Of a stretch of 64,000 bases of DNA, positions 1 to 26,001 are shown piece by piece. The stretch comes from Escherichia phage EcS1, in sequence record NC_055721.1. The stretch is one strand, 5' to 3'. How positions within the stretch are numbered: position 1 is the stretch's first letter; every line of letters starts with the position of its first letter. A program made the position numbers and the translations under genes. The notes under the pieces are model-generated. The model worked only from the letters and a program-made list of their open reading frames with translations. It did not search any database and was not told where the DNA came from.

Positions 1-2169
1 TTATGAGCCCAGATTCAATAGTTTAGCAAAGTCAGTAGCTTGTTCAGCAGTCATACCATACCGACCTTTCATGTATTCAGATAGAACTAAGTTTTCTTTT
101 TCAAACTTCTTAATTCGATCTTCTTGTTTTTTAGAAGCCGAGTTAGTAAGTTTATCAAAAATATTTTTAGCTAGTTTATGCTCATTAATCACTTCAGTAT
201 AAGTGTTCTTAAATGACATAGCATAAGTCTTTAATTTAACTGCAGCTTTAGAAGTAACACCGCTTTCATTAAAGAATTTGTCCATTGCAGCCAGACAACT
301 ATGTTTGTTAATATGACGAGAATAAAAAGAATACGTTCCGGTCTCTACTGTATATTCATCGTAGTCAACAGTATCGATAAGTTCGATAAAGTAATCACTC
401 ATACGTTTGTATAATGATTTTAACTCAGTATTCTTGTAAGCGTATTTCCACACTGCAGGACGAAGAACAATGAACTCTTTAACATCATCGATCATTTCTG
501 CACAAGTTTTAATATTATGGAACGCCATACCATAGATACTTTTACCATCTGAATCATGGAAATCATCACGGTTCTGGAAGATGGTCCATTCATCTTTGAG
601 GTCATAAACATCTTTAGCCGATAAGAACAAATCACTAGCAATAAAGTGTCCTTCAGCATTTTTAACGAGACGGTAGCCGTTAGGTGATTTAGGACGAACA
701 GTACTTGGTCCTTTACTAGCTTCTTCTTTAACGGTAATGCCTTGAGCTTCTGTGAGTTCAGACATCTTGTAAGTTTCTACGATATCTTCACCAAAGAATG
801 TTTTAATTAAAGCAAGAGTTTTCATCTCAAGCTCTGAGTTCGCATCAAACATAACGATATCATCGAATGTTTTAAGCTCAGGATAGCCCTTAGGCAATTT
901 ATCTTCACGAGTTAATTTAGCTAAACCACGAATCGTATCAAGCTTCTTATTGCTCTTAACGTCGTTTAGAAGAACAACCAACTTCTCTGTAGAATAGCCG
1001 TACAGTCGATTCGCTGAAGCCGTTTTAGAGTTAGAAGTCCATTTAATGCGCTTACGTGTAGGTGTAGCACACATTTCATAAGCACAACCAACTTCAGCAA
1101 AGTGTTTAGGAATTTCATGCATCTGCTGAAGCTGACGAATATTATAACCTTTGACACCAAATGTAGTAACACGATGCTGTAAGAAGTTTCGTGCATCATA
1201 AGACAAACCATCAATCATACGATGAATCTTACGGGCATTAGTTTCAGCCGCGAAATCTTTCAAGTCTTCTTCTAAAACTTTCTTACCAAGTTCATTAATA
1301 CGTTTACGAACGTTTGCTGCAGTTTGTTCATCAAATGAAAGTTCTTCACGTGATGGAGTGATATCAAGTTCACCAAGTTTAAAACGAATAAACGTGATAT
1401 CATTTTTAATTTGAAGCCATGACTTAGGCAAATCAGGACATTCATTCAATGGGTAAACAATATTACCATACAGAGCATAGATGCCTTTATTTTCAAAACC
1501 TGTATAGTTGTAGGACATACTATAAGTGTCTTCGAATTCAGGGAAGAATTCAATTTCTGTTTTAGTTCCAGTGAGTTCTACTTTACCAGCGAAAGGACGA
1601 AGAACATAACGAATTTCTTTCAACCAAGCTGAAAGGTCATTCATTTTAACTGGGACAGTAATTTCAATACCAGTTTCATCACCTTCTTTCATTTCTTCAA
1701 CGAATGTAGGTTTCAGAACAGGTTCACCACCATCAAGCATTGCGTTGAAACCACGAATCATTCCATCATGATAAGACACAACAGTAAAGGTTTCGGTATA
1801 ACTGAATGGTGATTTAGAACCAAGACCCAACGCACCAATGAAGTCATTACTATTAGACTTAGTTGAAGCAAAATAAGTAGTGTACAGATTCAGAACGTCA
1901 TCTTCACTTAGCCCAGGACCAAAGTCACGAATAACAAATCGTGGGTCTAGCTGTGAAGGAGCCTTAATCGTAAATGGTTTAGTTTGACCATTCAAGAAAT
2001 GAGCATCAATACAGTTACAAGATAATTCGCGAACGATAGCACGAATCTTATTCTTGTAGAGGTTAGAAGACAAGATTTTAAATGCCTTCGCTGAAGTTGC
2101 GATACTAAACTTTTTAGATGCTTGGTTACCTGAACCCAGGATTACTTCATCGTCTGTAACTAATTTCAT
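1..2169 (-). CDS. rIIA: rIIA protein (membrane-associated, GHKL-ATPase-like N-terminus)
   Basis: 722 aa; N-terminus matches my recollection of T4 rIIA (KAFKILSS.LY.NKIRAVVRE...DPRFV.RDFGPG...GLGSKSPFSY); complete ORF, TAA stop at 1-3. Confidence 0.9.
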   Translation of the reverse strand: MKLVTDDEVILGSGNQASKKFSIATSAKAFKILSSNLYKNKIRAIVRELSCNCIDAHFLNGQTKPFTIKAPSQLDPRFVIRDFGPGLSEDDVLNLYTTYFASTKSNSNDFIGALGLGSKSPFSYTETFTVVSYHDGMIRGFNAMLDGGEPVLKPTFVEEMKEGDETGIEITVPVKMNDLSAWLKEIRYVLRPFAGKVELTGTKTEIEFFPEFEDTYSMSYNYTGFENKGIYALYGNIVYPLNECPDLPKSWLQIKNDITFIRFKLGELDITPSREELSFDEQTAANVRKRINELGKKVLEEDLKDFAAETNARKIHRMIDGLSYDARNFLQHRVTTFGVKGYNIRQLQQMHEIPKHFAEVGCAYEMCATPTRKRIKWTSNSKTASANRLYGYSTEKLVVLLNDVKSNKKLDTIRGLAKLTREDKLPKGYPELKTFDDIVMFDANSELEMKTLALIKTFFGEDIVETYKMSELTEAQGITVKEEASKGPSTVRPKSPNGYRLVKNAEGHFIASDLFLSAKDVYDLKDEWTIFQNRDDFHDSDGKSIYGMAFHNIKTCAEMIDDVKEFIVLRPAVWKYAYKNTELKSLYKRMSDYFIELIDTVDYDEYTVETGTYSFYSRHINKHSCLAAMDKFFNESGVTSKAAVKLKTYAMSFKNTYTEVINEHKLAKNIFDKLTNSASKKQEDRIKKFEKENLVLSEYMKGRYGMTAEQATDFAKLLNLGS

Positions 2170-2966: not shown

Positions 2967-4805
2967 TTACGACATCCAGGCCTTACGAAGTTTAGGGTCA
3001 TCACCTAGAAGCATTTCAAATTGTTCTTTCCAATCATCAGGTAATTGAATAACATCATAGACCGGTTTCATGATTACTCGTTCATATTCATCACGTTTCA
3101 ATGAACCAAGACCTTTAATATATCTGATACTGTAACCCTGGAGACGTTCCTTGGCAGTTTCATATTCAGCCAAGTCATACAACCATTCTTCTTTCTTGCC
3201 TTTAGTAGCAATGATTACAGGTGTCTTAACGAAACGAATACGTCCTTGTTCGAACAGTTCAGGCCATTGAGTAAAGAATGCTAATAATGAAGGATAAATC
3301 GAACCAGTTCCATCTACGTCAGCATCAGTCATGATACCGATATTTCGATAGTTCAGTGAATCAGCCTTTTCACCGATTACTAGACCAGTGATAGCACAGA
3401 TATCAAATGCTTCTTTGTTCTTAAGAATATCACCTGAACTCATACCCCAGGTATTCATGAACTTACCACGTAATGGATATCCACCATGTAGTTCACGGTC
3501 ACGAACTTCAATCAAATATCCGATTGCTGAGTCACCTTCCGTCAAGAACAGAGTAGTTTCAATTTTATCATTGCCATATTTGTTTGGCTTGATATGTTTG
3601 GCTACTTTTGCCTTCTGAGCTTTCTTTTGAGCCTTGGTTTCAGCAGCTTTTTCAGCAGCAATTTTACGTGCTAATGCAGCTTCGATAATAGGCATCAATA
3701 CTTCATCTGATTTCAGAATTTGTTGAGCAATCTTTTTAGTATCAAGCTGGATATGAGAACGAATCTCGCCAAATGGTGATGTCAAACGTTCTTTAGTCTG
3801 TGAATCGAAACGCATGTTCTTCATACCACGAACAAACATAACGAATGTCAGACATTCTTTAACACGAGCCTTAGTGACTTCAATTTTATGTTTACGCTTA
3901 ATAGCTGGAAGAAGTTCTTCACAGATATCATCCATCACACAATCAATATGGTGTCCGCCATTCTTAGTGTGAAGGTTATTCACATAAGTCAGATGACGAA
4001 AACCGTCAGGAGAACGACCAATTGCGATAGAACAATTGTCCACGTCAAAGATAACTGCTTCTTCATCAAACTGTTTCGCGAACTTTTTGAAAATACCTTG
4101 AACTTTTTTACCATTGAATTTAAACTCGATATCAGGATAAATTACAGCTAAAGTTTGAAGTCTGTCAAGAATAATATCCAAATAAACTTGAGAGAGCCCA
4201 TTAGTTTCAAAATGACTAAAATTAGGAATAAATGAAACAATAGTTCCTGTTTTAGAAGTTACATGTTCTTTATTCTTAGCTGGTTTTGTTTCCCAACTAA
4301 TATTCTCTGCGCCATTTGAACAGCGAACTACAATTTCATTTTTACCATCACATGTTGCACCTGCGAAGGTAGTAGAGAAGATATTGGTTAATGAAGAACC
4401 AACACCATTCATCCCACCTGTTTCACGGTCAGCATCTTCACCAAAGTTACCACCTGCCTTAGGACGAGTCCATGCAGCTACTGGACCTGGGATTTCAGTT
4501 CCTTCAGGAGTCATCACTGGAGTCTGAGGAATGCCACGTCCGTTATCTTCAACAATAACTTTAGAACCACGAACTTCTACTGAAATTTTATTAGCATGAG
4601 CAAAACGAGTACGAATCGCTTCATCAACCGAGTTATCAATGATTTCATCAATCAATTTAACAACGCCAGGAACATAGGTTACTTTTTCAAATTTGCCAAA
4701 CAGAAAACGTTCTTGGACTTCATTAGAAGAAGAGCCAATGTACATCCCGCTACGTTTAATAATATGCTCACGGTCAGACAGAATTTTAATTTCGTTCTTA
4801 ATCAT
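2967..4805 (-). CDS. 39: DNA topoisomerase II large subunit, fused 39/60 type (GyrB-like ATPase + TOPRIM)
   Basis: 612 aa; near-identical in long stretches to my recollection of T4 gp39 (MIKNEIKILSD.EHI.KRSGMYIGS, VTGGMNGVGSSLTNIFS, TKNGGHHIDC); C-terminal part continues into gp60-like sequence in one ORF. Confidence 0.9.
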   Translation of the reverse strand: MIKNEIKILSDREHIIKRSGMYIGSSSNEVQERFLFGKFEKVTYVPGVVKLIDEIIDNSVDEAIRTRFAHANKISVEVRGSKVIVEDNGRGIPQTPVMTPEGTEIPGPVAAWTRPKAGGNFGEDADRETGGMNGVGSSLTNIFSTTFAGATCDGKNEIVVRCSNGAENISWETKPAKNKEHVTSKTGTIVSFIPNFSHFETNGLSQVYLDIILDRLQTLAVIYPDIEFKFNGKKVQGIFKKFAKQFDEEAVIFDVDNCSIAIGRSPDGFRHLTYVNNLHTKNGGHHIDCVMDDICEELLPAIKRKHKIEVTKARVKECLTFVMFVRGMKNMRFDSQTKERLTSPFGEIRSHIQLDTKKIAQQILKSDEVLMPIIEAALARKIAAEKAAETKAQKKAQKAKVAKHIKPNKYGNDKIETTLFLTEGDSAIGYLIEVRDRELHGGYPLRGKFMNTWGMSSGDILKNKEAFDICAITGLVIGEKADSLNYRNIGIMTDADVDGTGSIYPSLLAFFTQWPELFEQGRIRFVKTPVIIATKGKKEEWLYDLAEYETAKERLQGYSIRYIKGLGSLKRDEYERVIMKPVYDVIQLPDDWKEQFEMLLGDDPKLRKAWMS

Positions 4806-17436: not shown

Positions 17437-17802
17437 TTATAATTGATACCATTTTGGTTTTATTTCACTTAATGCCTGTTGAATCTGTATCATAATACAT
17501 TTTTCAACGTGTTCGGCCAGTTCGGCTTTTCTTTCTTCAGATGGAGTCCCGAAATCAACAGTACATTCACCTTTTGGTGAAATATTAATCCCAGTAACAT
17601 ATACGATATGAGGAGTCCCATCAGGCAAGGTAAGCAATATTTCTTGCTTCACTCGACCCATAGACTCCTTAATTATTTTTAGAGACCTCTCATAGAAACG
17701 AGAGTCCTCGTTTGAGGACTCCTCTTCTGTTTCTACTTCGAAATTACTGAGGTCTGCTAAATCAGCATCAGTAACATTATTCATCTTCACCTGCGAAATC
17801 AT
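17437..17802 (-). CDS. 40: hypothetical protein at gene 40 position
   Basis: 121-aa acidic ORF between uvsX and 41; assignment by position only. Confidence 0.4.
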   Translation of the reverse strand: MISQVKMNNVTDADLADLSNFEVETEEESSNEDSRFYERSLKIIKESMGRVKQEILLTLPDGTPHIVYVTGINISPKGECTVDFGTPSEERKAELAEHVEKCIMIQIQQALSEIKPKWYQL

Positions 17803-18952
17803 CTAATTCGGATTCAATATCAGCAGCACTGACGCCTTTTGATTCAGGCACAATGAACTTTTCAACTTTAGACATAATCAAATCATCAACTTCAGCATCA
17901 ACTGTAGCGTTAGAATCGATTGCACCTAATTGATAATGACGTTTGATTGCTTCACGGAATGGTTCATGTTTGAACAATGGAGACCAGAACTCAGTTGAGC
18001 TTGTGTCTTTTGCTCGCCATGATTTTTCTTCACGAATCATTTCACCCGTTTCGATGTCAAGATATTCACGTGAATACCAACCATTCTTAGGTTTAACAAC
18101 AAAGCCTAAGGTCTGAGCCATATCAAGTAGACCAGAATAAGGGTCAATACCACCATCAAATTTAACGTCAATAAAGAACTTAGATTTCTCTTTAACCGCA
18201 CGAGATTTCTCTGCATTCAATACGAACTGGAAGCCTTCAAGTTCTTTACCGGCTTCTTTAATCTGACGTTTACCAATAATGAATACGGTGTCAGCAGAAT
18301 ACATCACACCGGTACCACCAGTCATGACAGTCTTACTAAACATTTCCATAGTTTCGATGGTATGGTTAACCGCAACACAAGGGATGTCTTTAATACTGAA
18401 GAACGGAGTAACGATACGGAACAGAGACTTCAGCTGCTTAGCACGAGTCATATCGGCTACAGTTTTCTCGTTCAATGCATCTTCTGTTTCTTTCTTAGAA
18501 GCCATATTACCAATTGAGTCGATGAAGATAATAACCTTCTCACCACGTTCAATTGCTTCAAGTTGGTTTACCATATCAATCTTCAGTTGTTCTACTGACT
18601 GGATCGGTGTATGGATAACACGTTCTGGGTCAACTTTCATTGCACGCAGATAAGCTTCAGAGATACCGAATTCACTATCATAGAACAGACAGATAGCTTC
18701 TGGGTATTTGTTCATGTATGCTGAAACCATCGTTAAACCCATGTTGGATTTAAAGTGTTTAGAAGGACCAGCAAAGATTGTTAAGCCTGATTGCATACCA
18801 CCATCAAGGGCACCAGAGATTGCGATATTCAGCATCGGAATCTTTGTACGAACCACATCTTTATCATTGAAGAACTTTGACTTAGTCAGTTCAGCAGTCA
18901 TTTTAGAGGTGGATGCTTTAATCAGACGAGATTTCAGGTCAGCGAGTGCCAT
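17777..18952 (-). CDS. uvsX: UvsX recombinase (RecA-like)
   Basis: 391 aa; long identical runs with my recollection of T4 UvsX (DLKSRLIKASTSK.TAELT.SKFFN.KDVVRTKIPM.NIA.SG, GPSK.FKSN.GLTMVS.YM). Confidence 0.95.
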   Translation of the reverse strand: MALADLKSRLIKASTSKMTAELTKSKFFNDKDVVRTKIPMLNIAISGALDGGMQSGLTIFAGPSKHFKSNMGLTMVSAYMNKYPEAICLFYDSEFGISEAYLRAMKVDPERVIHTPIQSVEQLKIDMVNQLEAIERGEKVIIFIDSIGNMASKKETEDALNEKTVADMTRAKQLKSLFRIVTPFFSIKDIPCVAVNHTIETMEMFSKTVMTGGTGVMYSADTVFIIGKRQIKEAGKELEGFQFVLNAEKSRAVKEKSKFFIDVKFDGGIDPYSGLLDMAQTLGFVVKPKNGWYSREYLDIETGEMIREEKSWRAKDTSSTEFWSPLFKHEPFREAIKRHYQLGAIDSNATVDAEVDDLIMSKVEKFIVPESKGVSAADIESELDDFAGEDE

Positions 18953-19036: not shown

Positions 19037-19579
19037 CTATTTGGCCCACTTGATAATGCTTGTGATAATTGAATTGCGAGATGCAGGATAAATGCCTTCT
19101 ACATTATTTGAATCGTCATGTTTCAAGATTTGTCTGATACTTAAATCGTTATCATCTGCGAATTCATGGAATGATTTAATAATTTGGTTAAAGCCAAATG
19201 GGCTCAATGAGATCAAATCATCTTCAAAATCTGTTTTGATTTCATTACGAGTTAGAATCAATGTATAAACTTTGTGATTATCAATTAATCGATTAAAGTC
19301 CACTTCGTACTGTTCAACACATTTCTCATTGCGTAGTTTACCATAAACCCAATTACTGATATAACCACGATCTAATAGATAGATTTTGCTAGAATCGAGA
19401 TAATTTAGCATCGTTTCGAAGCAAGATACTTCATTACGACTTTTGATATCAAATCGACCATCATCTGTACGTTTTGGGAAGTCAATGAGCTCATAACGAT
19501 CAGAAATTTGACAGATATCACGAATCAATGTTGTTTTACCAGCATTGTCAGGTCCGTCAATATAAATTATTTTAGCCAC
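19037..19579 (-). CDS. P-loop kinase-like protein (nucleotide/sugar kinase fold, substrate unknown)
   Basis: 180 aa; Walker A GPDNAGKTT at residues 8-16; sits where T4 has beta-glucosyltransferase. Confidence 0.5.
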   Translation of the reverse strand: MAKIIYIDGPDNAGKTTLIRDICQISDRYELIDFPKRTDDGRFDIKSRNEVSCFETMLNYLDSSKIYLLDRGYISNWVYGKLRNEKCVEQYEVDFNRLIDNHKVYTLILTRNEIKTDFEDDLISLSPFGFNQIIKSFHEFADDNDLSIRQILKHDDSNNVEGIYPASRNSIITSIIKWAK

Positions 19580-20478
19580 AAATCACCTTCAATAATGATG
19601 TCTTCACGTTTAGGAATGTTGTATGGAGAATGAATGTTACACCGAAAGTAAACAAGTTCTGCTAGTCCAGGATGAAACACCTTTTCAGGGTTTTCATTAT
19701 ACAAGATAACAGGAGTTGCTTTTAACACACGATAATATTCTTTCTTGTTCAACTTGATAAGATGTATTTTATCATAGTTATACTCAGAAGCATCATATGT
19801 ATCATTTGGGTCAGTGATATACAAGTCAAGGTTTAAACCCTTACAAGTTCTAATGACCTTTTTGAAGTTATAACATTTATCACTAATACGGAATGGATGG
19901 AATACACCCTTAAACTTGATAGGGTCTGTGTTGCGAGAGAACGTCTGCATGACGTCAGGATTAATTACTCGCTGTGAGACTATAATCTTATCTTCATCTG
20001 CGCCGTATGCAACCAGGGTATCTTTCTGACACTTGTTCAACACAAATGTACGAAGGCTTTGATTCACTGATAGAACATCAAGATCAATAAACTCATCAAT
20101 GTAATACCGTTCTACTTCACGGTCTTTAGTGATATTGAAATTATAGATGACTTCATTTTTACCTGGATAACCTGTGATATCAGTCACAAGATGAGCACAA
20201 TCAAAGTAATCCATTAATGAATCGATGACAAACCAGTTCTCTTCCCAGAAATGCTTACGAGATTCATATGCATTATCTTTATACCAGACAGGACAGAATG
20301 TGATTTCAGGGAACAGTTCTCTCAACTCTTCTTCGTCATCATTATTCTTTGGAATACAAATGATGTCACCGGGACTAGCCCGGTGTAATTGGAGTTGAAA
20401 GTTACCGTCTTTAAGAATAGCATAATTACCAGTTTCGTAAGAACGCATTGAAAAGATAGGAACGATCAATTTAGCCAT
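19567..20478 (-). CDS. hypothetical protein; positional candidate for hmC sugar transferase
   Basis: 303-aa ORF with start overlapping gp42 stop; no motif I can assign by eye; occupies the bgt locus. Confidence 0.4.
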   Translation of the reverse strand: MAKLIVPIFSMRSYETGNYAILKDGNFQLQLHRASPGDIICIPKNNDDEEELRELFPEITFCPVWYKDNAYESRKHFWEENWFVIDSLMDYFDCAHLVTDITGYPGKNEVIYNFNITKDREVERYYIDEFIDLDVLSVNQSLRTFVLNKCQKDTLVAYGADEDKIIVSQRVINPDVMQTFSRNTDPIKFKGVFHPFRISDKCYNFKKVIRTCKGLNLDLYITDPNDTYDASEYNYDKIHLIKLNKKEYYRVLKATPVILYNENPEKVFHPGLAELVYFRCNIHSPYNIPKREDIIIEGDLWLK

Positions 20479-21176
20479 TATTTTAAGAACCTTTTAACAT
20501 AATCAAAGTCACGCTCAAAGACGTGGGCTGACACCATAGAGTGAGTGTATGAACCCATTTTAACACCACATTCATCAGCAATATATTTCATCAATTTCTG
20601 CTGAAGATAAAAATCAAGTTGCATAACTACAGCACAGTTCTGAGAACGCATATGACAGTGAGTATGAAGACGATCATCACGGATATAATACGTTATGGAA
20701 TCCGTGCAAGGGTATTCTAGGGTCTCATCACTATCAAGCAGTGTTTGGTCGCTTGATTCGAGAATCTGGAACACAACACGTCGCGAGTTAGGCTTCTCTT
20801 TAAGTTCTTTGAGAAGGGTTGGTAACTGGGCAACAATACGAGGTCCATAAAAAGTGTTGAAGTTTGCAGGCAATGTGTCACTTTTTGGTTTTGAAATGAA
20901 TTTAGCAACATTAGGATATTCCTTAAATGCTTCTACTGCATCAGTACCACCAGAAATCATGAATTGCCAGAATGATTCAGCGTAATCATAATCGATACGA
21001 TTGATACGTTCGTCTTGGAAGATGGCAGATTCTGGTTCGAACACTTCAATTACTGCCGAGCCAATTTCATGACATCGACCTATACGAGAATCAGTCACAA
21101 AATCTGGTGACTTCAAGATGAGCTCATTCATCTCTTTAAATGCTTCTTCAAACGTCCAGGCTTTAACTGAAATCAT
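20478..21176 (-). CDS. 42: dCMP hydroxymethylase gp42 (thymidylate-synthase fold)
   Basis: 232 aa; PCTDSITYYIRDD and MRSQN...D match the T4 gp42 catalytic Cys region and the cytosine-specifying Asp; NSRRVVFQ resembles the phosphate-binding SRR. Confidence 0.8.
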   Translation of the reverse strand: MISVKAWTFEEAFKEMNELILKSPDFVTDSRIGRCHEIGSAVIEVFEPESAIFQDERINRIDYDYAESFWQFMISGGTDAVEAFKEYPNVAKFISKPKSDTLPANFNTFYGPRIVAQLPTLLKELKEKPNSRRVVFQILESSDQTLLDSDETLEYPCTDSITYYIRDDRLHTHCHMRSQNCAVVMQLDFYLQQKLMKYIADECGVKMGSYTHSMVSAHVFERDFDYVKRFLK

Positions 21177-21517
21177 AGTACCTCTTGTCGTTTTTTACTT
21201 TCATTAAAAATAAATTGATAGATCGATTTTAACTCATCAGGAACTGCAGCGAGTTTAAATGCTTCGACTTCAAGGTTCTCGACAGGAAGATTATGTTTCT
21301 TCTTCAAGGACCCAATAGCATCGGTAACTTTAAATCGACGTTCTAACAACTTATGCATTTCATAATCAATGTCTTCAATTTCATTACGCATTACATTGAG
21401 AAGTCGAGAAGGACTTGGCTTGACATCAAATGGATTATAAGTTGCTGGGTCTTCTCCCGCCTGAATACGGCGGGATTTAATAGAGATTTCGTTCATCATA
21501 TGGTTGATACGTCTCAT
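21173..21517 (-). CDS. AroQ-type chorismate mutase-like protein
   Basis: 114 aa; LLNVMRNEIEDIDYEMHKLLERRFKVTDAIGSLKKKHNLPV...ES...Q follows the CM_2 pattern; start overlaps gp42 stop (ATGA). Confidence 0.55.
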   Translation of the reverse strand: MRRINHMMNEISIKSRRIQAGEDPATYNPFDVKPSPSRLLNVMRNEIEDIDYEMHKLLERRFKVTDAIGSLKKKHNLPVENLEVEAFKLAAVPDELKSIYQFIFNESKKRQEVL

Positions 21518-22773
21518 TCTGGGTACCTCATTGCGTCGTCTGCATTATCAGTAATTGATACAATCTGGATTGAATTCAGTGGCATATCGTTCTTAGATAA
21601 TTGTCGTTTGTAATAACGTTCACAATAAGTACAAGTTGAACCACAGACTTCATTAGCACAATCAAAGTCAGGATGTTTGAACCAACGTTTCTTCAAGAAG
21701 CCATCTAACAATGATGTTTCAATATTCACTGTGTGTTGATAGTCAACTTCAGATTCATTAGTATAGATCGTTTCTAGTGGCTTCCAGAGCTCAAGGAGGT
21801 TACCTTCGAAATGTTCTGATGAATAAGCTTCCAGAACTTTCATGATGTACTCTGTTGACCCTGTACGTCCTGACACTTTGAACTGAGTGATACCAATGTC
21901 ACGATACAACGCTAAATCTTGTGGACGTACAAAACGTGTACGAAGCCAGTTGAATGGGTCAGTGTCTCGTGCTTTGATACAGTGCTGCATCGGATACCCA
22001 TCTAACTTCTGGGCATCTTCTGATGTGATATCAGTAGAGTGGAAAATATAACATGAATCACGATAGCTACAATGAGTGGTATAACCTTTGCCTGCGTTAG
22101 AACAGAATTCATTAACCAGGATTTCAAAGATAATGCCAGCTTCATTACAATATTTCGCAGCTTGTTTCAAGAATGATACGCTACGGTTCTTGTGAATACC
22201 ACAACACACTTTTTTGATGTTGTATTGTTCATGAAGATACTTAATCTGAGTTACCGCATCTACGTGCAGGATAGTCGAGATTTCGAATTCGATTTCAGTA
22301 TTAACTTCACGAACGATTTGCATTACGATTGGGTTAGCAACAGTAATACGATACACACCGATTGACCACAAGTACTGGACATATTCTTGGATAGCTACTT
22401 TCTTCCAATCGTCGAGTTCACGTTTAGAACCAGGGTTAATGCTGTTGAACGTGTAGTTGAAGCAAATACCAAGTTCATTACAACGAGCAACATATTCTTC
22501 TAATTGAGAATTTTTTACATCAGGAAGACGAAAATCAGGGCGAGCAGCAACGAAGGCCATTTCACGAGTTGACCCATAGACTTCATTAATCAATGAATCA
22601 GGGTTCTTAGCATTCAACTCTACAATTTTATCCAGTAGAGCCAAGTCAAAGTTAGTACCAATTTTAAAAGTTTGTTTTTGCATTTTCATCTCTTTTAAGC
22701 AGGAAAAGGATGCGATGTCTTTTGCAGGCTTGTTACAATTAAGGTTTATATGGAGCGTGATGTTCGAAAACAC
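21514..22773 (-). CDS. U32-family protein (putative prephenate-dependent hydroxylase; Cys cluster)
   Basis: ANPIVMQIVRE, FKVSGRTGSTEY and EFCSNAGKGYTTHCSYRDSC align with TrhP/YegQ-type U32 motifs; C-terminal CxxxCxxCxxC. Caller start is GTG; ATG at 22687-22689 (MKMQKQ) is likelier. Confidence 0.55.
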   Translation of the reverse strand: MFSNITLHINLNCNKPAKDIASFSCLKEMKMQKQTFKIGTNFDLALLDKIVELNAKNPDSLINEVYGSTREMAFVAARPDFRLPDVKNSQLEEYVARCNELGICFNYTFNSINPGSKRELDDWKKVAIQEYVQYLWSIGVYRITVANPIVMQIVREVNTEIEFEISTILHVDAVTQIKYLHEQYNIKKVCCGIHKNRSVSFLKQAAKYCNEAGIIFEILVNEFCSNAGKGYTTHCSYRDSCYIFHSTDITSEDAQKLDGYPMQHCIKARDTDPFNWLRTRFVRPQDLALYRDIGITQFKVSGRTGSTEYIMKVLEAYSSEHFEGNLLELWKPLETIYTNESEVDYQHTVNIETSLLDGFLKKRWFKHPDFDCANEVCGSTCTYCERYYKRQLSKNDMPLNSIQIVSITDNADDAMRYPE

Positions 22774-23098
22774 CTTTTTGCATTAATGATTTGAATGTAT
22801 CAGGACGCATAGCTTTGTCATCGATAATCCAATCATACGCAGGTTTGTGAGTCATAAGTTCATGATATCTGAGTCCGATCTTTTCCAGATTCTTGACTAG
22901 ACCAGGAACTATTTCAACAGAGATACGACCAGGACCACATGATGTCATACCACGAGCAGTGTAGAGGACAATTATATGACCTTCATCATAAAGCTTATTA
23001 ATCATAGACACCATGACGGTGTCCGGATGAAAGTTTTCATAATCACGATTACTATTCCAATGAGTAATCGTGTTATCAATATCAAAGCAAATACGCAT
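22739..23098 (-). CDS. HAD-superfamily phosphatase
   Basis: Likely start ATG 23096-23098 overlapping upstream stop (TAATG): MRICFDIDNTIT (DxDxT), YTAR, IIDDKA. Confidence 0.6.
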   Translation of the reverse strand: MRICFDIDNTITHWNSNRDYENFHPDTVMVSMINKLYDEGHIIVLYTARGMTSCGPGRISVEIVPGLVKNLEKIGLRYHELMTHKPAYDWIIDDKAMRPDTFKSLMQKGVFEHHAPYKP

Positions 23099-24777
23099 TA
23101 GATAGGTTCCCACTGATGTTTGATATCACCACCGACAGGACGATATTCTACACCAGTTTCTTTATCAAGCAGAACCCATTTGCCTGGGTTCTTAGTGATT
23201 AACGTAGCCACAACCGGTTCAGCTTCATCAAATGAAACTGTATCATCTTGAAGTCTACGGCCCATTTTACGTAACTGTTTTGTTAGTAGCATCATGCCAT
23301 AATAATATGCAGCAGTTGCTTTCAATGGGTTGTTCTTGAAATAACCACCAAGTGCAATCCAAATAATGGCTACAGCAAGATGATGATATTCATTGAACAT
23401 ATCAGTCTTTTCATATTTGTATACTAAAGGAGCAATATTGACCCAAGCATTTTCATCATCAATGGTAAGGCCACCCCAAGCATGATTAGCATTAAAACTA
23501 TCATAGCCAGAAATAGCATAAAGAACTTTTGCTTCATCATACAAACGAGGGCCATAAATTTCAGTCTCGCCAAAGTAGCCACGAGGGTCAATGAACCGGA
23601 CTTTGCCGTCATATTGAATCATGGTATTGCTAAAGTTAGGGTCACCATGAATAACTGAATACTGACGGCCTTGAGTTTCATGATGATGATAAATCAAATG
23701 AGATAATGCTTGTTTGAGCATTGGTTTCAAACGTCCAAGTTTAACACCATTAACATGGGTTATTTTGCCGAATGAATTCACTACACCTTGAATACTTTCG
23801 CAACGGTCAATAACCTTAGTGTAGAACTCTTTAGTGAAGTCACGTTCAATTGTATTTTCAGAAGCATATACTTCATTACCAAAGTTTAATGCTTCAAGAA
23901 TGTCTTCAATTTTATTAAACTGGTGGTCTGCTGGTAAACCGTACAACCATTCAAATGCTGGAAGACCTTTAATGCGTTCCATTACAAAACTATTTTCTGT
24001 AACGGCTTCGATAAATGGTGTAGCATCAGAACTAACTGAACGATACCAAGATAGTTCTTTCTCTTGGAGTTTTTTACCTTGCTCAGTTACTGCAATCTTT
24101 TCTACAGTATGTTCATGCATTTCAACAGAGTTAAAACTACGGTTCAGTTCACGATCTTTGTGCGCGTCATGAAGCTTAATCATATCACCTAAATCAATAA
24201 GATTTAGAAGTTCAGAATAAGTGAATACTTTAGGGTAGATAAATTCTACAAAGTCTCGTCCACGACAAGCATCATGAATTTCTTCTTTGCTTTCGCCTTG
24301 CCAGAATTCCCAATCTCTGAATTGATAGATTCCAACTACGTTACCACCAGTGTCACCTACGTTTTTAATTGAATCACCGTCGAACTTATAACGACATTCA
24401 TTACCTTTAACATAGATCGCATTTTGGTCCCAAGACCATGAACCAAAGTCAGGAATAATGTCGCACCAGTTAACGATTACATTATGACCTTCAAGGAACT
24501 TACTCATCGTAGCTAATGCATAAGCAGAACCGTATGCTTCATCTACTGTATGAACAATGATATTCAAACCTTCTTGTTCGGCATAAGCCACTACAGTTTC
24601 AGCGAATTTTGAATGCACGACTACATAAATTTCATCTGCACCAAGGTCTGCATAGATGTCATGCAAGTTCTTTAAGATTGTATGTTGTTTGTAGTTAACC
24701 AACACCTTTGGGATATGATGTGTAACTGGATACAAACGAGTTGCTAATCCAGCTCCTAGAATAACTGCCTTTTTCAT
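23098..24777 (-). CDS. bifunctional sugar-1-phosphate nucleotidylyltransferase / APH-type sugar kinase
   Basis: 559 aa; N-terminal MKKAVILGAGLATRLYP (RmlA/MurU-like); C-terminal IHGDPNFSNTM and FIDPRG (aminoglycoside/choline-kinase fold). Confidence 0.65.
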   Translation of the reverse strand: MKKAVILGAGLATRLYPVTHHIPKVLVNYKQHTILKNLHDIYADLGADEIYVVVHSKFAETVVAYAEQEGLNIIVHTVDEAYGSAYALATMSKFLEGHNVIVNWCDIIPDFGSWSWDQNAIYVKGNECRYKFDGDSIKNVGDTGGNVVGIYQFRDWEFWQGESKEEIHDACRGRDFVEFIYPKVFTYSELLNLIDLGDMIKLHDAHKDRELNRSFNSVEMHEHTVEKIAVTEQGKKLQEKELSWYRSVSSDATPFIEAVTENSFVMERIKGLPAFEWLYGLPADHQFNKIEDILEALNFGNEVYASENTIERDFTKEFYTKVIDRCESIQGVVNSFGKITHVNGVKLGRLKPMLKQALSHLIYHHHETQGRQYSVIHGDPNFSNTMIQYDGKVRFIDPRGYFGETEIYGPRLYDEAKVLYAISGYDSFNANHAWGGLTIDDENAWVNIAPLVYKYEKTDMFNEYHHLAVAIIWIALGGYFKNNPLKATAAYYYGMMLLTKQLRKMGRRLQDDTVSFDEAEPVVATLITKNPGKWVLLDKETGVEYRPVGGDIKHQWEPI

Positions 24778-24815: not shown

Positions 24816-24959
24816 TTAATTAAAGCACTGGAACTTAGCTTGTAACCAAAGCATGACCCAAGCAACCATAAGTGTAGGAATCATTACTGGAGTCATGATA
24901 CTCCAGTAAATAGTTGCGCCAAAGAATAACAATAATAAAAATATGGCTAGATATTTCAT
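24816..24959 (-). CDS. small hydrophobic membrane protein (47 aa)
   Basis: Unlisted ORF MKYLAIFLLLLFFGATIYWSIMTPVMIPTLMVAWVMLWLQ...; ATG overlaps the isomerase stop (TGATG). Confidence 0.35.
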   Translation of the reverse strand: MKYLAIFLLLLFFGATIYWSIMTPVMIPTLMVAWVMLWLQAKFQCFN

Positions 24960-25585
24960 CAGTCACCGCGCAATTGAGCACCTAATGCACCACCTGGATG
25001 GAAGCGTAGGAAGTCGTCAGGAGTAAAGCCACGTTCGGCTGAAAGGTTAATTGCAAAGGTATCAATCAGAGCCAAGAGCAACGTCGTGGACATTGTAGGC
25101 GCCAACTTATGCTCATCAATCTCAACTGCCTTGCCTGTACAGAAAGTATAGTCAAACAAAGCTAGTACACCAGAATTCAAATCAGGATTGCAATGTAAAA
25201 GGATTTGTTTAACACCAGGACGAATTCTTCGTAGATGTTTAACCACCCCAATCATTTCTTCAGTCTTACCAGAACGAGAGATATGAATCAATACATCATC
25301 AGGACCAATGAAACCTGCATCGCCATGAGAATAATGTCCAGTGTTCAAGTAAAGACTTGGAATACCCAACGAGGCCATTGTTTCTGAAGCCTTAGTGGCG
25401 ATATTAGCGTTTTTACCTACGCCGGTGATGATTACACGGCCTTTGTAATCGGAGAGCCCAGGGCCACGCAGGCATTGCAGTATTTGATTATACGAGTTCT
25501 CATGGTCAACTACAATATCAGATAAAGTAATAAGAGCTGAAGTTTGTAGTACTAAAGCATCTCTTGCACGTAAAATAGGATTCAT
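24959..25585 (-). CDS. D-arabinose-5-phosphate isomerase-like SIS-domain protein (KdsD/KpsF-type, no CBS pair)
   Basis: GRVIITGVGKN, HISRSGKTEE, LAPTMSTT, FHPGGALG align with KdsD; likely start ATG 25583-25585 (MNPILRA) overlapping the upstream stop. Confidence 0.75.
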   Translation of the reverse strand: MNPILRARDALVLQTSALITLSDIVVDHENSYNQILQCLRGPGLSDYKGRVIITGVGKNANIATKASETMASLGIPSLYLNTGHYSHGDAGFIGPDDVLIHISRSGKTEEMIGVVKHLRRIRPGVKQILLHCNPDLNSGVLALFDYTFCTGKAVEIDEHKLAPTMSTTLLLALIDTFAINLSAERGFTPDDFLRFHPGGALGAQLRGD

Positions 25586-26001
25586 TAGATATTTTCTTCC
25601 ACACATTTATTAACTGTTGAGTAATAATTACTAGCAGCATTCACATAAGTATTTTTATGGAGTTCTGCAGCTTTATAATCGCCTGATTCAAGAGCAACGG
25701 AATAATTATATTCGATCTTAGATAGTTTAACATCAATTATCTGTTGACATTTACGAGCTAATGCTGAACGTTTCTCTGCATTTGTTGTTCTGAGCAATGC
25801 TTCACGTTCACCTGGAAACTCAACACGTTCTACTTTCATGTTCGCGTACTTATCACAGTTACCACCACATTGATTAGATACACGTTCGTAGATAAGCCCA
25901 GTTCCACCTTTGAATTTAAGATTCCCGTCATAAGGCTGGTTGATATTTGTTCCAGCACATCCTACAAGACTTAATGATAATGCAATGATTAATAGTTTCA
26001 T
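25585..26001 (-). CDS. putative lipoprotein (imm/imm.1 position)
   Basis: MKLLIIALSLSLVGCAG: signal peptide with lipobox; 138 aa, Cys-containing mature part. Confidence 0.5.
   Translation of the reverse strand: MKLLIIALSLSLVGCAGTNINQPYDGNLKFKGGTGLIYERVSNQCGGNCDKYANMKVERVEFPGEREALLRTTNAEKRSALARKCQQIIDVKLSKIEYNYSVALESGDYKAAELHKNTYVNAASNYYSTVNKCVEENI

Follow-up and report, generated by a model that had tools for sequence, protein, structure and literature searches.

Background

Which enzyme would attach the first sugar to the DNA of Escherichia phage EcS1 (genus Kagamiyamavirus), and to which base, is the question raised by an open reading frame of 303 codons (ORF303) located in the 64-kb stretch of the EcS1 genome analysed here (hereafter the window). 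ORF303 lies at the place that the beta-glucosyltransferase gene (beta-gt) takes in phage T4. In the original prediction, made from the letters of the window, it was put forward as an orphan of unrecognised fold transferring a sugar to hydroxymethylcytosine (hmC). Many T4-like phages owe protection against restriction enzymes, the Brig1 glycosylase and certain CRISPR-Cas systems to arabinosylated 5-hydroxycytosine, which gives the question a practical side. The enzyme adding the first sugar performs the step that defines the modification, and reconstitution of this step is not reported in the accessible literature.

In this study, we assign ORF303 a probable role as the initiating glycosyltransferase of an arabinosyl-5-hydroxycytosine DNA modification pathway. 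The core of the original prediction, i.e. that ORF303 is the DNA-sugar transferase of its gene cassette, is thereby retained, with support from fold, synteny, phyletic profile and literature, and both the fold and the acceptor base are revised.

A conserved gene at the T4 beta-gt position

ORF303 corresponds to KNT65_gp036 of EcS1 (100% identity). It is a real gene, since homologues are present in 351 phage records, PHROG 3891 is matched from end to end (E 1e-145) and 23 columns are invariant in an alignment of 78 homologues going down to 36% identity. Its ATG and the stop codon of the upstream gene, which encodes a thymidylate synthase (TS) homologue, have one base in common (TAATG junction), and the overlapping start and stop described in the original prediction were thus confirmed. 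At its 3' end, ORF303 overlaps by 13 nucleotides (nt) the GTG start of a kinase-like ORF of 180 codons, which is preceded by the ribosome-binding sequence GAAGGTGA. ORF303 is translationally coupled to both of these neighbours.

These three genes sit between uvsX and a run of sugar-nucleotide genes (Table 1), which stops before the DNA polymerase gene. The EcS1 order (TS homologue, ORF303, kinase-like ORF, uvsX) matches that of T4 (42, beta-gt, segA, uvsX). On comparison of the maps, ORF303, directly downstream of a gene-42-type enzyme and upstream of uvsX, therefore does occupy the beta-gt position, as had been proposed. The order TS homologue, transferase and kinase-like gene was also found in LC53, RB69, HY126, Thanatos-2, KARL-1 and Acj61.

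Orthologues and prior description of the family

ORF303 is 90% identical to protein UYM28689 of LC53 and 49% identical to TH2_066 of Thanatos-2, and its N- and C-terminal halves are matched by RB69 ORF047c and ORF046c (61% and 52% identity, respectively). These two RB69 reading frames have been joined as gp46:47 and named arabinosyltransferase 1 (PMC13326640). From sequence comparison, ORF303 is an orthologue of RB69 gp46:47, DLP3 gp79, Thanatos TH1_063 and LC53 UYM28689. The RB69, DLP3 and Thanatos orthologues have already been modelled, under the name of arabinosyltransferase 1 or of single arabinosyltransferase (ara-GT), and the genus of EcS1 is listed, in the variant spelling 'Kagamiyumaviruses', among those having the cluster (Lee et al., NAR 2026, PMC13326640). 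Both the proposal of an initiating role and the fold are thus already published for this family (2025-26 papers), of which ORF303 is an ordinary member, and the novelty of its assignment is low for this reason. The term orphan holds at the sequence level, where no Pfam or NCBIfam family is matched, and does not hold with respect to the literature.

In several GenBank records, among them those of LC53, Thanatos-2 and a Morganella phage (L001 6004..6906; L002 1865..2776), the ORF303 homologue is annotated as 'putative RNA polymerase binding protein'. This label, which neither family libraries nor fold searches of ORF303 supported, looks like a propagated mis-annotation.

A GT-B fold with conserved C-terminal residues

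A search of PDB with the single ORF303 sequence gave one weak match (E 0.039), to a fucosyltransferase of the GT-B glycosyltransferase (GT) fold, and a profile of the 78 homologues found no glycosyltransferase in PDB. The original prediction had seen no resemblance to the T4 Bgt sequence, and family comparison with hhalign agrees with it, the probability being 0.1% against T4 beta-gt and 0.5% against the RB69 gp3 transferase, i.e. no homology in either case. An exhaustive profile search retrieved only 231 relatives among 1.84 billion cluster representatives.

The AlphaFold2 model of ORF303 has a predicted local distance difference test (pLDDT) score of 95.3 and a predicted template modelling (pTM) score of 0.90. 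It consists of two Rossmann-like alpha/beta domains with a cleft between them, i.e. the GT-B fold. Its structural neighbours are sucrose-phosphate synthase 6kih (score 18.2), BshA (17.2), PimA (16.2), the phage HY126 glycosyltransferase 9iqz (14.4) and T4 alpha-glucosyltransferase 1y6f (14.0). Foldseek also gives GT-B, with the 2-epimerases of uridine diphosphate (UDP)-N-acetylglucosamine (UDP-GlcNAc), which share this architecture, just above MshA. The fold is hence a recognised one, contrary to what had been supposed, and structure prediction with Foldseek searching, suggested at the time as a check, returned the GT-B fold.

GT-B enzymes hold the donor diphosphate with basic residues and the ribose with an acidic residue, in the C-terminal domain. 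None of the 78 homologues departs from R197, D200, K245 and H269-P-G, and each has either Asp or Glu at positions 262 and 274. R197 and D200 lie just past the first strand of the C-terminal domain, and conserved residues stand at the expected secondary-structure positions. In the model, these basic and acidic residues are candidates for binding the diphosphate and the ribose of the donor. The EX7E motif is absent, as the spacing is 11 between acidic positions 262 and 274 and 8 between E265 and E274; the conserved core reads H269-P-G-x-x-[ED]. The absence of DxD motifs reported in the original prediction was inexact, two literal DxD tripeptides being present (D132-L-D134 and D161-E-D163), with position 132 variable across the family. 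DxD is a hallmark of the GT-A fold, and the lack of a conserved one in ORF303 is expected because GT-B enzymes are metal-independent.

A GT-B fold may also belong to proteins other than transferases, and ORF303 might be an enzyme resembling UDP-sugar 2-epimerases, or a partner without catalytic activity, which appears very improbable to us. UDP-GlcNAc 2-epimerases are the highest Foldseek matches in PDB (E ~5e-8), and the RNA-polymerase-binding label of several homologues can be counted on the same side. Yet family libraries lend that label no support, the isomerase of the cassette already fixes the arabino configuration, and two enzymes are reported to be enough for UDP-arabinose synthesis (PMC13326640). 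Moreover, the invariant polar residues (R12, D24, N26, R74, R197, D200, N225, K245 and H269) argue for catalysis.

The upstream enzyme and the acceptor base

The TS homologue matches PDB entries 9iqu, 9iqc and 9ir2 with E values of ~1e-122 and T4 gp42 (1b49) with an E value of 3e-8, and its identity to T4 gp42 is 26%. Where T4 has RSND...D, the EcS1 enzyme has RSQN...D, i.e. D169N and N177D, with Asn replacing the Asp169 of both T4 and E. coli; the cytosine-selecting Asp is retained. We infer that the three entries are the structures of the HY126 synthase of 5-hydroxy-deoxycytidine monophosphate (5hodCMP) cited in PMC13326640, because their entry numbers adjoin 9iqz, 'phage HY126 glycosyltransferase'. 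In RB69 and DLP3 DNA, arabinose is attached directly to the 5-hydroxyl of cytosine (Lee et al., NAR 2026, PMC13326640). According to the same paper, the TS homologue produces 5hodCMP with flavin and O2, and D169N is diagnostic of 5hodCMP synthases.

Because the upstream enzyme combines D169N and N177D with matches to 9iqu and 9iqc at E 1e-122, the acceptor base of ORF303 is, as judged from sequence, almost certainly 5-hydroxycytosine (5hoC) and not hmC. Neither the naming of this neighbour as gp42 nor the choice of hmC as acceptor, both part of the original prediction, survived these comparisons. The Asn at D169 and the E values obtained with 9iqu and 9iqc as against gp42 speak against a gp42-type dCMP hydroxymethylase next to ORF303.

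Proposed donor synthesis and mechanism

The genes that would supply the donor stand upstream in the same run (Table 1). In the bifunctional ORF of 559 residues, the N-terminus ILGAGLATRLYPVTHHIPK carries a nucleotidyltransferase signature and the C-terminal part gives kinase-like matches. For the haloacid dehalogenase (HAD)-family phosphatase gene, the true start is probably ATG 23098 rather than GTG 23113; this ATG would overlap the stop codon that ends the 559-residue ORF, as ATGA. The HY126 enzymes AfhE and AfhF are reported to make UDP-arabinose, these two being sufficient (PMC13326640).

Table 1. Features of the ORF303 region of EcS1 and of related contigs (positions are those of the window unless a contig is named)
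Feature	Position	Strand	Remarks
ORF303, predicted first (base-proximal) arabinofuranosyltransferase on 5-hydroxycytosine, GT-B fold	19567..20478	minus	303 aa, ATG..TAA
TS homologue, predicted flavin-dependent 5-hydroxy-dCMP synthase, not dCMP hydroxymethylase	20478..21176	minus	PF00303
Thymidylate-kinase (TMK)-like P-loop protein	19037..19579	minus	PHROG 761 thymidylate kinase E 4e-35; weak profile matches to TMK structures
HAD-family phosphatase, AfhF/RB69 gp51 equivalent	22739..23113	minus	PHROG 1238 E 4e-40; TIGR01689 capsule biosynthesis phosphatase E 3e-13
Bifunctional sugar-1-phosphate nucleotidyltransferase (N-terminal)/kinase (C-terminal), AfhE/RB69 gp52:53 equivalent	23098..24777	minus	PF00483 E 8e-9; PHROG 4098 E 3e-267
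Arabinose-5-phosphate isomerase, SIS domain, KpsF/GutQ family	24959..25606	minus	PF01380; PHROG 5670 E 9e-106; TIGR00393 E 1e-32
Chorismate mutase type II domain protein, accessory gene between U32 gene and TS homologue	21173..21517	minus	PF01817 E 5e-12; several NCBIfam models
Peptidase-U32-family accessory protein	21514..22773	minus	PF01136 E 7e-11; PHROG 5757 E 6e-258 from residue 33
uvsX	17777..18952		
rIIA	1..2169		
ORF of 132 codons	2370..2768		
Large topoisomerase subunit	2967..4805		
Kinase-transferase fusion	L010 5412..7064		metagenomic contig
Kinase-transferase fusion	L012 8001..9662		metagenomic contig
Kinase-transferase fusion	L011 733..2343		metagenomic contig

In the proposed pathway, the isomerase, the kinase/uridylyltransferase and the HAD phosphatase would convert ribulose-5-phosphate to UDP-arabinofuranose (UDP-Araf), and the TS homologue would hydroxylate dCMP at C5. 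The C-terminal Rossmann domain of ORF303, a compact two-domain GT-B enzyme, would bind the UDP-sugar, and arabinose would pass from UDP-Araf to the cytosine 5-hydroxyl, forming a base-proximal O-glycoside. The simplest acceptor, on the T4 analogy, would be 5hoC in already replicated DNA. For ORF303, the present data establish fold, orthology, synteny and co-occurrence, whereas its donor, its acceptor and catalysis are predicted. The original prediction had reasoned that ORF303 is the only unassigned enzyme-sized ORF in the operon, a premise that fails, given that three others, encoding the U32, chorismate mutase and kinase-like proteins, likewise have no role in the synthesis of a nucleoside diphosphate-pentose.

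An assay on a Thanatos orthologue bears on whether ORF303 could rather make the activated sugar, as a UDP-pentose pyrophosphorylase, and be no transferase. With uridine triphosphate (UTP) and xylose-1-phosphate, TH1_063 gave a product having the mass and fragmentation of UDP-xylose, and TH1_060 gave none (PMC12838424). TH2_066, the Thanatos-2 protein 49% identical to ORF303, stands at the TH1_063 position, directly after the TS homologue. We see hardly any chance that this is the function of ORF303. The reading has little weight because the fold is wrong for it (GT-B and not a nucleotidyltransferase fold) and because the GxGxRxxPxxK signature and PF00483 are found in the 559-residue neighbour, the HY126 equivalent of which (AfhE) is reported to make UDP-arabinose with AfhF. 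The assay itself employed a non-physiological sugar and a His-tagged protein purified from E. coli, for which co-purification of a host GalU-type enzyme may be one possible artefact. Besides, if ORF303 were no transferase, mono-arabinosylating phages would be left with no recognisable transferase.

Distribution of the transferases and number of sugars

Phage records number 351 for the ORF303 family, 370 for the bifunctional UDP-arabinose synthase and 342 for the kinase-like gene, and the counts per host genus are almost the same for the three. The RB69 gp3-type transferase, the HY126 orthologue of which has a solved structure (9iqz; match E 5e-249), occurs in 212 phage records, i.e. those of Escherichia/Shigella type, Acinetobacter and one Tegunavirus. 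Each Acinetobacter record listed has two gp3-type matches, and none of the 212 records is from Serratia, Erwinia, Klebsiella, Yersinia or Shewanella. The number of sugars reported per base is one in LC53 and Thanatos, two in Bas46 and RB69, and three in DLP3. As the gp3-type distribution fits these one-, two- and three-sugar phages, transferase gene number varies in step with the sugars reported, and the ORF303 family is the universal transferase.

In LC53, the closest analysed relative of EcS1, the DNA has a single arabinose per hydroxycytosine. RB69 keeps gp3 between rIIA and the large topoisomerase subunit gene, a gap that in EcS1 holds only an ORF of 132 codons, and no second, gp3-type transferase was found among the large ORFs tested in the window. 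Since the records of host genera of the nearest relatives have no gp3-type gene either, we predict from this part of the genome that EcS1 DNA is mono-arabinosylated. As for nomenclature, the 'Aat' of Mahler et al. 2025 (Cell Host Microbe) is said to be a chain-extending transferase. One citing paper names Aat as the arabinosyltransferase deleted in Bas46.

Evidence against the assignment and the level of the acceptor

Several points weigh against ORF303 as the initiating transferase. No Pfam (E 0.1 or better) or NCBIfam model is matched, so there is no Pfam glycosyltransferase domain, canonical GT4 sequence motifs are not detectable, and Foldseek places UDP-GlcNAc 2-epimerases slightly higher than transferases. 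No enzymatic activity of the family is described in the accessible literature, which did not include Mahler 2025 and He 2026 (Nat Chem Biol). The DLP3 transferases, purified singly and provided with UDP-Araf or UDP-arabinopyranose (UDP-Arap), did not arabinosylate 5hoC-DNA (data not shown in PMC13326640), and the authors cannot tell whether the first sugar goes on a mononucleotide or on DNA. In the study in which TH1_063 formed UDP-xylose, xylose was not passed on to unmodified DNA, to dCMP or to deoxycytidine triphosphate (dCTP) (PMC12838424). Finally, the remaining 111 kb of the 175-kb EcS1 genome lie outside the view of this analysis.

The inactivity of single transferases on 5hoC-DNA and the mononucleotide route left open by these authors suit a scheme in which ORF303 arabinosylates free 5hodCMP before replication, the polymerase then incorporating a pre-glycosylated nucleotide. 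The coupled kinase-like protein would phosphorylate the bulky arabinosyl-5hodCMP, which a deoxynucleoside monophosphate (dNMP) kinase of the T4 gp1 type may not accept. We regard this scheme as possible but rather unlikely. If true, a base would here reach DNA already glycosylated, by way of the nucleotide pool, instead of being modified within the polymer; we know of no earlier case.

Gene fusions speak for this scheme. Among the 150 best cluster representatives, eight are kinase-transferase fusions (P0214, P0225, P0227, P0229, P0233, P0237, P0254 and P0255), with the P-loop domain at the C-terminus in seven and at the N-terminus in one. The fused domain is homologous to the family of the EcS1 kinase-like ORF (hhalign probability 93.3%, E 2.8e-7, 129 columns, P-loop included), and Pfam Thymidylate_kin matches fusion P0225 (E 1e-4). 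The DR[YF] motif is a feature of thymidylate kinases, and a DR..S..Y segment resembling it lies in the hhalign region. One fusion, in a T4-like contig, adjoins genes of this type of cluster (isomerase, nucleotidyltransferase and U32), and a second contig shows overlap of a kinase-like gene with a HAD-transferase fusion. EcS1 shares the 13-nt overlap of the transferase and kinase-like genes with the Acinetobacter phages KARL-1 and Acj61, and the phyletic profiles of the two genes are nearly identical (351 versus 342 records). In addition, a gp1-type dNMP kinase already handles 5hodCMP (PMC13326640), so that the second kinase needs another job; a different substrate is thereby suggested, for which arabinosyl-5hodCMP is a candidate.

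A fusion nevertheless indicates functional coupling (the Rosetta-stone argument) and not the order of steps or the substrate, and the function of the kinase-like domain is itself putative. The characterised phage DNA glycosylations (by the T4 alpha- and beta-glucosyltransferases), as well as the third arabinosylation of DLP3, act on polymerised DNA. Moreover, 5-hydroxydeoxycytidine (5hodC) made by the synthase and a gp1-type kinase enters E. coli DNA unglycosylated, so that an acceptor is available at the DNA level (PMC13326640). The isoelectric point (pI) does not discriminate between the two levels, being 5.4 for ORF303 and 5.7-7.8 for the KARL-1 proteins that correspond in position to the DLP3 transferases acting on DNA. 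Transfer to 5hoC in DNA is the reading that we keep for ORF303. The kinase fusions are new here, and their occurrence in both orders suggests, at the level of sequence, that the mononucleotide route should be kept open. Together with the universal pairing with a kinase-like gene, they are a reason to try a mononucleotide acceptor with the kinase partner, and the outcome would show which genes phage engineers should transfer or remove in order to alter phage DNA chemistry.

Other domain arrangements and neighbourhoods were observed among distant relatives. Eight other distant homologues (P0136, P0145, P0146, P0148, P0163, P0174, P0194 and P0212) have an N-terminal HAD-like domain, which may be KdsC-like. 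A relationship of this domain with the EcS1 HAD phosphatase was considered and rejected (hhalign probability 0.3%, no detectable relation). In contigs L012 and L013, the kinase-transferase fusion gene stands between a dCMP deaminase gene, which comes before it, and a U32 gene. The accessible stretches of the metagenomic contigs show no TS homologue next to the fusion genes, one fusion contig being too short to include neighbours, so that those phages may have another hydroxylase or another base.

The U32 and chorismate mutase genes

Two further genes of the run lie between the HAD phosphatase gene and the TS homologue. The U32 gene probably starts about 30 codons past GTG 22773, a protein of 389 residues being annotated in LC53, where a homing endonuclease gene, absent from EcS1, stands between the U32 and HAD genes. 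The U32 gene was detected in 222 phage records, in 212 of which the identity is at least 80%, all listed host genera belonging to the Enterobacterales. No Acinetobacter is among these genera, as against 57 Acinetobacter records with an ORF303 homologue, and the Thanatos-2 cluster has no U32 gene. In a distant contig where the transferase falls to 28 bits, the U32 protein still scores 352 bits. The chorismate mutase gene occurs in 45 phage records; the rows listed place it beside the TS homologue, with the U32 gene on its other side in LC53.

The product of chorismate mutase is prephenate. The U32 proteins TrhP and UbiU/UbiV carry out O2-independent, prephenate-dependent hydroxylation (PMC6599085, PMC10990095). 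It is a reasonable hypothesis that U32 and chorismate mutase would form an anaerobic, prephenate-dependent route to 5hoC, which in phages of facultatively anaerobic hosts would serve as a reserve for the O2-dependent flavoenzyme. In the description of the RB69 cluster, gp50 is labelled 'sugar or heterocycle reductase', with no mention of U32, TrhP, prephenate or chorismate (PMC13326640).

Comparison with known systems

The T4 beta-glucosyltransferase (GT63) and alpha-glucosyltransferase (GT72) employ a glucose donor and an acceptor hydroxyl carried by the hydroxymethyl group, whereas ORF303 is predicted to transfer a pentose to a hydroxyl borne directly by the ring (5hoC). ORF303 is also acidic (pI 5.4, versus 9.05 for the T4 glucosyltransferase compared), and its family is always coupled to a kinase-like gene, while T4 has none at the beta-gt locus.

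The bacterial GT4-type enzymes of GT-B fold (6kih, BshA 6n1x, PimA 2gej and MshA 3c4q) are the best structural neighbours, covering about 250-276 of the 303 residues of ORF303. Just past the first C-terminal-domain strand, ORF303 has a conserved Arg, a putative counterpart of the one in these enzymes, and it has a likewise putatively equivalent acidic residue on the helix to which the ribose of the nucleotide is usually bound. ORF303 differs from them in its low identity (7-12%), in having neither a Pfam Glycos_transf_1 match nor EX7E, and in being about 60-100 residues shorter.

The chain-extending enzymes, i.e. RB69 gp3, HY126 9iqz and 9ir0, and DLP3 gp76-77, form a family unrelated to ORF303, with 366 residues and detectable as GT4-like; they are limited to phages with two or three arabinoses and act on already arabinosylated DNA. 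From the members of arabinosyltransferase 1, in contrast, EcS1 ORF303 shows no essential difference, apart from the RB69 gp46:47 gene being split by a sequencing error.

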